Shown here one piece after another: positions 39,792 through 43,952 of a stretch of 64,000 nt of DNA (positions are counted from its first letter, which is position 1; every line of letters begins with the position of its first letter). Location: NCBI RefSeq assembly GCF_003334315.1, contig NZ_QOWR01000024.1. One strand, given 5' to 3'. A model generated the notes under the pieces. The model had not been told where the DNA came from. It searched no databases and saw nothing but the letters and a program-made list of their open reading frames with translations. Origin of the DNA: Escherichia coli (lineage in GTDB: Bacteria; Pseudomonadota; Gammaproteobacteria; Enterobacterales; Enterobacteriaceae). The translations under genes and the position numbers were made by a program.

Positions 39792-42682
<2,891 letters not shown>

Positions 42683-42767
42683 CGGATTTTATCCTGTTAT
42701 CAGTAGGGTAGATGTAGTTGTTATCAGTCGACGTGACGGAAAAATGCCGATGCTGAAACGGAATTAA

Positions 42768-42854
42768 GAAACCGGTTTCACAAAATCATGAATAGTTGTC
42801 ACTAAATAAGCAAGAGAGTGAATTGTTCATTTTTTATATTTGTGAAACCGGTCA
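42768..42854. promoter_or_regulatory. asc promoter region with two AscG-type (GalR/LacI family) operator palindromes
   Basis: Perfect palindrome GAAACCGGTTTC at 42768-42779 and related TGAAACCGGTCA at 42843-42854 in the ascF-ascG divergent region. Confidence 0.45.
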
Positions 42855-42941
42855 CCTGAATATTTTTCCCGCCGATTGTGCAAGGACAATCGGCAAACGG
42901 TGCAGTACACTGCGTTGATTGCGTGTAAAGGGATGAAAATG

Positions 42942-43952
42942 ATGACGACGATGCTGGAAGTGGCGAAGCGCGCCGGGGTTTCAAAAGCGACCGTTTCCCG
43001 CGTGCTTTCAGGTAATGGCTACGTCAGCCAGGAGACTAAAGATCGCGTGTTTCAGGCGGTAGAAGAGAGCGGTTACCGTCCAAACTTGCTGGCGCGCAAT
43101 CTGTCGGCGAAGAGTACTCAGACGCTGGGGCTGGTAGTGACCAACACGCTTTACCACGGCATTTATTTTAGTGAATTACTCTTTCATGCCGCGCGAATGG
43201 CGGAAGAGAAAGGGCGGCAGTTGCTATTGGCAGATGGTAAACACAGCGCAGAAGAAGAGCGCCAGGCGATTCAGTATCTGCTGGATCTGCGCTGCGACGC
43301 GATCATGATTTACCCGCGTTTTTTAAGCGTGGATGAGATCGATGACATCATTGACGCGCACAGTCAGCCGATAATGGTGCTTAATCGCCGCCTGCGCAAA
43401 AACAGCAGCCATAGCGTCTGGTGCGATCATAAACAGACCAGTTTTAACGCCGTGGCAGAGTTGATAAACGCCGGGCATCAGGAGATTGCTTTCCTTACCG
43501 GCTCGATGGATTCCCCCACCAGCATTGAACGTCTTGCCGGGTATAAAGACGCGCTGGCGCAGCATGGTATTGCGCTCAATGAAAAACTTATCGCTAACGG
43601 TAAATGGACGCCTGCCAGCGGGGCCGAAGGGGTAGAAATGTTGCTCGAACGTGGGGCTAAATTTAGCGCGTTAGTTGCCAGTAACGACGATATGGCGATA
43701 GGTGCGATGAAAGCGTTACACGAGCGCGGCGTAGCGGTGCCAGAGCAGGTGTCAGTTATCGGATTCGATGATATCGCTATTGCCCCCTACACCGTTCCGG
43801 CGCTCTCCAGCGTAAAAATTCCGGTGACTGAGATGATTCAGGAAATTATTGGACGGCTGATTTTTATGCTCGATGGCGGGGATTTCTCACCGCCGAAAAC
43901 CTTCAGCGGAAAACTGATCCGCCGCGACTCACTCATTGCTCCTTCGCGATAA
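42942..43952 (+). CDS. ascG: LacI/GalR-family repressor of asc operon, 336 aa
   Basis: Start set at MTTMLEVAKRAGVSKATVSRV (HTH); periplasmic-binding-protein-like core. Confidence 0.9.
   Translation: MTTMLEVAKRAGVSKATVSRVLSGNGYVSQETKDRVFQAVEESGYRPNLLARNLSAKSTQTLGLVVTNTLYHGIYFSELLFHAARMAEEKGRQLLLADGKHSAEEERQAIQYLLDLRCDAIMIYPRFLSVDEIDDIIDAHSQPIMVLNRRLRKNSSHSVWCDHKQTSFNAVAELINAGHQEIAFLTGSMDSPTSIERLAGYKDALAQHGIALNEKLIANGKWTPASGAEGVEMLLERGAKFSALVASNDDMAIGAMKALHERGVAVPEQVSVIGFDDIAIAPYTVPALSSVKIPVTEMIQEIIGRLIFMLDGGDFSPPKTFSGKLIRRDSLIAPSR

Follow-up and report, generated by a model that had tools for sequence, protein, structure and literature searches.

An AscG operator and a CRP box with an overlapping AscG-type sequence in the ascF-ascG intergenic region of Escherichia coli

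The DNA analysed here, a stretch of 64,000 nucleotides from Escherichia coli referred to below as the window, contains a K-12-type asc (arbutin-salicin-cellobiose) locus (ascB-ascF / ascG) in which ascFB and ascG are divergent. In the RefSeq annotation of an identical locus the gene order is hycGHI-ascB-ascF / ascG-hydN-hypF, with norW also among the neighbours. The ascF and ascB genes were identified with NCBIfam models (Table 1). The AscG protein matched LacI/GalR-family models, all below their equivalog cutoffs, and no AscG-specific NCBIfam model passed; the name AscG is therefore taken from the exact identity of the locus to the RefSeq AscG locus. The gene opens with ATGATG (42939–42944). 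RefSeq places the start at the second ATG, 42942, giving 336 codons; the first one (42939, 337 codons) is used by the open reading frame and by a published cloning primer.

The 256-bp intergenic region (42683–42938) is 100% identical to that of K-12-type E. coli; among 5426 complete genomes of the species, 4699 contained a match. Since the other 727 genomes carry no match to it, the asc locus is accessory in this species, in agreement with the report that ascG is absent from some lineages (PMC6550539). Upstream of ascG the region holds a perfect 9-bp inverted repeat, GCCGATTGT-N6-ACAATCGGC, at 42871–42894. The innermost pair of this repeat is broken by a T-to-C SNP in many other E. coli, and its conservation across genera is limited to a TTGTC core. 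The repeat could be part of the ascG promoter or leader.

Table 1. Genes and regulatory features of the asc locus, in positions of the window
Feature	Position	Strand	Basis
ascB, 6-phospho-beta-glucosidase, regulated gene	39792–41216	−	NF007356, 1088 bits (cutoff 623); RefSeq annotation
ascF, PTS cellobiose/arbutin/salicin IIBC component, regulated gene	41225–42682	−	NCBIfam equivalog NF007311, 1025 bits (cutoff 722); RefSeq annotation of identical locus
AscG operator O1, TGAAACCGGTTTCT on the ascF strand, containing the perfect 12-bp palindrome 42768–42779	42767–42780	−	Sequence; PMC8667592; conservation; top matrix score
Left arm of perfect 14-bp inverted repeat, ACCGGTTTCACAAA	42771–42784		Computed
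Predicted ascF transcription start (A), 96-nt leader	42778	−	7 nt downstream of conserved −10
54-bp promoter core (−35, spacer, −10) between the arms, inverted in TUM1226	42785–42838		Alignment
Predicted ascF −10 hexamer, CATGAT	42785–42790	−	Conserved cATgAT column block
Predicted ascF −35 hexamer, TTGCTT, 17 bp upstream of −10	42808–42813	−	Conserved cTTG block and spacing
Right arm of perfect 14-bp inverted repeat, TTTGTGAAACCGGT	42839–42852		Computed
CRP box TGTGAAACCGGTCACC, overlapping in Escherichia the AscG-type O2 TGAAACCGGTCACC (42843–42856)	42841–42856		CRP ChIP-seq; conservation; matrix
ascG, LacI/GalR-family repressor, intact here	42939–43952	+	100% identical to locus annotated WP_001394680.1 AscG

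A first-pass annotation of this DNA had pointed to a perfect 12-bp palindrome, GAAACCGGTTTC, at 42768–42779 (site 1) and a related half-degenerate copy, TGAAACCGGTCA, at 42843–42854 (site 2), lying about 75 bp apart between the divergent genes, and had proposed them as a candidate pair of AscG-binding sites of the LacI/GalR type. The positions of both sequences and their placement between ascF and ascG were borne out by a check of the sequence. In record NZ_CM183442.1 the segments 42767–42780 and 42843–42856 correspond to about 2839320–2839333 and 2839244–2839257. The distance between centres is 76 bp for the two AscG-type 14-mers and 75 bp when measured to the centre of the CRP box that, as described below, covers site 2. 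Perfect 12-bp palindromes are not rare per se, with 16 observed in the window against 15.6 expected. The exact 12-mer GAAACCGGTTTC occurs once in the window.

Scanning genomes with AscG gave 79 loci; the divergent ascF-ascG layout was present in 54 of them. Alignment of 53 distinct promoter sequences from Escherichia, Citrobacter, Enterobacter, Klebsiella, Raoultella, Yersinia, Rahnella, Aeromonas and others revealed four blocks conserved in the ascF direction: a CRP-type box, cTTG (−35), cATgAT (−10) 17 bp further on and, directly after it, TGTGgAACCGGTTtCcTA. Since a strict σ70 consensus scan of positions 42600–43000 called no promoter, the −35 and −10 elements of ascF were assigned by conservation, and it is from them that we infer the transcription start. 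Relative to this predicted start, the 14-bp operator that contains site 1 (O1) covers about −2 to +12 (centre +5.5), and the CRP box is centred at about −70.5; the offset of the box to the −10 element is conserved in about 50 species. In E. coli 04A19CPO007 (NZ_CM151383.1) the AscG operator and the promoter are separated from the ascF start codon by an IS1 insertion at about 42729, so that ascFB is cut off from both sites as well as from the native promoter.

Site 1 lies in a published operator of AscG. O1, AGAAACCGGTTTCA, agrees with a perfect palindrome at 13 of 14 positions and has a central CG, and so conforms to the operator pattern of the LacI/GalR family (a 14–18-bp dyad with central CG, of the TGnAAnCGnTTnCA type). 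It also matches, at 13 of 14 positions, the sequence TGAAACC-GGTTTCA, reportedly the AscG box of Ishida et al. 2009. In the 54 ascF-ascG loci, all of which keep the layout with the LacI-family ascG divergent from the sugar operon ascFB, there was one palindromic box of the form nGnAACCGGTTnCn per locus (54/54); the box accompanies ascG in each ortholog locus, and its place relative to the −10 element is fixed. Among E. coli records the 40-mer around site 1 was identical or had one mismatch; in EC93, the one mismatch strain inspected, the difference is an A-to-G change beside the palindrome, which is itself untouched. Finally, the reverse complement of positions 42767–42780 is listed in Table S3 of PMC8667592 as “AscG, P_ascF, TGAAACCGGTTTCT”, and in that 2021 study AscG repressed strongly when the P_ascF 14-mer was placed at +1 of a synthetic promoter. 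The earlier assignment of site 1 to the LacI/GalR-family regulator AscG thus coincides with a published AscG sequence.

Two observations were made on AscG boxes elsewhere. Aeromonas rivipollensis and A. media have divergent ascG-ascF loci, with AscG 71–73% and AscF 86% identical to the E. coli proteins, and in both loci a box that is perfectly palindromic, TGGAACCGGTTCCA, is accompanied by a CRP-like box at the usual offset. The Aeromonas asc loci suggest transfer between Enterobacterales and Aeromonas. The other published target of AscG, the prpR-prpB intergenic region, was inspected in NZ_CM183442.1 and contains no 14-mer within 3 mismatches of the box; it has four TGAAAC half-sites about 11–13 bp apart and a split AGAAACC...GGGTTT. 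Because no full AscG box is found there, this region was of no help in defining how much variation an AscG site tolerates.

To score the window, an 18-nt weight matrix was built from non-Escherichia orthologous O1 operators only and applied to 63,983 positions. With this matrix, which pools operators of orthologs of 62–87% identity and assumes that DNA specificity is unchanged among them, site 1 ranked first (25.8 bits) and site 2 second (15.9 bits); the third-ranking position scored 4.6 bits. The sequence TGAAACCGGATTCG at 1305–1318, which with 2 mismatches comes nearest to the AscG 14-mer elsewhere in the window, was not among the 12 best-scoring positions of the 18-nt matrix and probably reflects chance. 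The relation between the two sites was also found to extend further than the first-pass annotation had seen: the copies are indeed related, but what they share is a perfect inverted repeat of 14 bp (Table 1). When the 256-bp intergenic region was shuffled 1000 times with its dinucleotides preserved, a separated inverted repeat of at least 14 bp arose once. Given this frequency and the top two matrix ranks, the pairing of the sites is not a matter of chance.

Site 2 is probably a composite. The 16-mer TGTGAAACCGGTCACC matches TGTGA-N6-TCACA at 9 of 10 core positions, and CRP ChIP-seq in ETEC H10407 gave a high-confidence peak at ascG/ascF with a MEME-called site, GGTGACCGGTTTCACA, that is the reverse complement of site 2. 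What other genera keep is the pair of outer half-sites, TGTGA and either TCAC or TCGC, together with the 73–74-bp offset from site 1; the six inner bases of the box are free there (for example TTACGA, TTTTGA or GACGA). As regards both ancestry and occupancy in vivo, site 2 is a CRP site. In Escherichia only, the spacer of this box reads AACCGG, and the AscG-type sequence O2, TGAAACCGGTCACC, overlaps the box with a perfect left half and a right half matching at 4 of 7 positions. Outside Escherichia the AscG matrix gave this position −13 to −53 bits in every genus, and across species the co-occurrence of O2 with the regulator is found within Escherichia only. Of 4700 E. coli records, 4547 (97%) carry the identical 40-mer around site 2. 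Among 119 metagenome contigs carrying the junction between site 1 and the −10 element, 96 have the exact E. coli 16-mer of site 2, and more diverged metagenome contigs have ordinary CRP boxes with unrelated spacers. A metagenome-assembled genome labelled Citrobacter sp. (DXKH01000019.1) combines AscG and AscF about 99% identical to those of E. coli with a site 2 of the Escherichia type; this contig or bin is probably Escherichia.

Since the region holds no AscG-type sequence besides sites 1 and 2, the proposal of a candidate AscG site pair was right, but it had missed the overlap of site 2 with the CRP box. The observation is real, and the interpretation as a pair is supported with site 2 taken as a CRP/AscG composite. 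Agreement with published AscG sites is direct for the 14-mer of site 1 (PMC8667592). For site 2 it comes through a secondary citation, PMC3505978, which gives two AscG-binding sites for ascFB after Ishida et al. 2009. From this citation and the sequence score we infer that AscG can bind at site 2.

Taken together, these data make it likely that ascFB is transcribed from a CRP-dependent promoter that is repressed by AscG at O1, with an Escherichia-only O2 inside the CRP box. The σ70 promoter of ascFB (−35 TTGCTT, 17-bp spacer, −10 CATGAT) would need CRP at about −70.5, a position of the class I type. Occupation of the near-perfect O1 palindrome by an AscG dimer would cover the start and block RNA polymerase. 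A change of the 6-bp CRP-box spacer to AACCGG, restricted to Escherichia, would have created the second AscG site; AscG on O2 may then compete with CRP, in which case activation would be removed as well. The first-pass annotation had also raised the question of whether the IS insertions that activate asc in other strains disrupt ascG rather than the two sites. That they disrupt ascG agrees with PMC3505978, whose Table 1 cites IS186 in ascG, the classic case of activation. Cooperation of O1 and O2 by looping is possible but unsupported, since a LacI-AscG chimera did not act as a looping repressor according to PMC3505978. LacI is a looping tetramer, whereas AscG is not known to form tetramers.

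The main alternative is that site 2 is a CRP site only, that its likeness to an AscG box is incidental, and that AscG acts via O1 alone. The likeness would stem from TGTGA, which belongs both to the CRP half-site and to the flank conserved in AscG boxes. Across genera it is the CRP half-sites that are conserved, CRP occupies the site in vivo in the ETEC ChIP-seq data, and other genera manage with one AscG box. The right half of O2, GGTGACC, breaks the nGnAACC half-site at one invariant position, and an AscG site placed at −61 of a synthetic promoter was almost without effect (PMC8667592). On the other hand, O2 has 15.9 bits against 4.6 for the next best of the 63,983 positions, the 14-bp identity with O1 is unlikely to be due to chance (1 of the 1000 shuffles), the AACCGG spacer hardly varies in E. 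coli, and PMC3505978 reports two AscG sites at ascFB. We therefore regard a purely CRP-binding site 2 as unlikely, though it is the strongest of the competing explanations, and prefer the composite of CRP box and O2.

A possible structural consequence of the 14-bp inverted repeat was found in one strain. In the complete genome of E. coli TUM1226 (NZ_CP135719.1, assembly GCF_032375145.1) the 54-bp core between the arms, 42785–42838, is exactly inverted: aligned directly, the core has 46 mismatches, against 3 under an inversion model, and these three residual mismatches are ordinary SNPs also present in EC93. As a result, ascFB is left without its promoter, which in TUM1226 faces ascG and has site 2 at its start. 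Such an arrangement, an exact inversion of a −35/−10 core bracketed by a perfect 14-bp inverted repeat, is what would be expected if the two sites were chiefly the arms of a programmed invertible promoter serving phase variation. Against this, TUM1226 alone among 4700 E. coli records was inverted; the flipped junction had 0 matches in metagenome contigs, compared with at least 120 for the normal junction; and the repeat is nonexistent outside Escherichia. No recombinase gene was found among the neighbours hycG/H/I, ascB/F/G, hydN, hypF and norW, and a literature search found no paper linking asc with invertons. A dedicated switch is thus very unlikely. The TUM1226 inversion is best read as a rare rearrangement mediated by the repeat, with an assembly error as another possibility.

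It is equally improbable that site 1 is mainly bound by another protein of the LacI/GalR family, GalR or GalS, instead of AscG. An information-theory scan predicts a GalR site, AAGAAACCGGTTTCAC, upstream of ascF at 42765–42782 with 12.7 bits. This in silico prediction lies outside the 15 GalR ChIP-chip regions of the same study, the box is present together with ascG in every locus, and AscG itself represses via this box (PMC8667592); GalR was therefore rejected as the main binder of site 1. Lastly, action of the palindrome in the transcript, be it as a hairpin of the leader, as an attenuator or as an antiterminator target of the kind found in the related bgl operon, would fit its location at the 5′ end of the predicted 96-nt ascF leader, but was dismissed as having next to no likelihood, since Rfam gave no family match (the sole sub-threshold match being a Drosophila mRNA element, E = 0.67), the leader folds no better than its shuffles (z = −0.19) and a terminator scan found no terminator-like site in 42600–43000.

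The preferred arrangement, AscG at O1 and a CRP box overlapped by O2, can be compared with several known systems. The lac control region has LacI operator O1 at +11, an auxiliary operator O3 and CRP at −61.5. As in lac, a LacI-family repressor at asc would be placed on a palindrome over or just downstream of the predicted start, with a putative auxiliary operator upstream and a class-I-type CRP site that would activate the same promoter; the difference is that the lac CRP site and O3 are adjacent and separate, whereas the putative upstream asc operator lies inside the spacer of the CRP box. Neutralisation of CRP-dependent activation by a LacI-family repressor is known from CytR anti-activation, for example at deoP2. 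The action proposed for AscG is alike in that a LacI-family repressor counters CRP activation, but CytR sits between tandem CRP sites and contacts CRP cooperatively, while binding at asc would be mutually exclusive at one overlapping site. The perfect palindrome TGAAACCGGTTTCA, the PtxS box of Pseudomonas, appears in four Pseudomonas papers on PtxS, a LacI-family protein, and related regulators. That regulon, for 2-ketogluconate, is unrelated and belongs to another organism, and the common motif is the family-wide TGnAAnCGnTTnCA pattern. With invertons of the fimS type the asc promoter shares short inverted repeats around a promoter and the existence of both orientations in nature; it differs in that the asc element is 54 bp long, has no recombinase nearby and is flipped in a singleton among 4700 genomes. 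AscG operators of the ascFB promoter were reportedly described by Ishida, Kori and Ishihama in 2009 (J Bacteriol 191:6136) and are said to be curated in RegulonDB/EcoCyc; O1 is no different from these, the locus, the regulator and the 14-mer being the same.

The AscG sites of the asc operon are thus already known biology: repression of ascFB by AscG via these boxes, as well as CRP dependence, has been in the literature and regulatory databases since 2009. What the comparison across species adds is that the pair of operators is not an ancestral feature. In about 50 other species a single AscG operator is accompanied by a normal CRP box; the merging of a second, putative AscG site with that box is confined to Escherichia, which offers a testable idea for the silence of the operon in E. 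coli. The full form of this idea is that the rewriting of the spacer to AACCGG in Escherichia put a second AscG site on the CRP box, may help to explain why asc is cryptic in E. coli while a plain CRP box is retained in relatives, and also made the 14-bp repeat that is able to flip the promoter toward ascG, as in TUM1226; as one connected account we consider it a long shot. Were the flip recurrent or selectable, it would amount to a recombinase-free promoter switch made from two transcription-factor sites. The single natural inversion, which may be an assembly artefact, would mean that two short inverted binding sites can be a substrate for rearrangement on the scale of a promoter.
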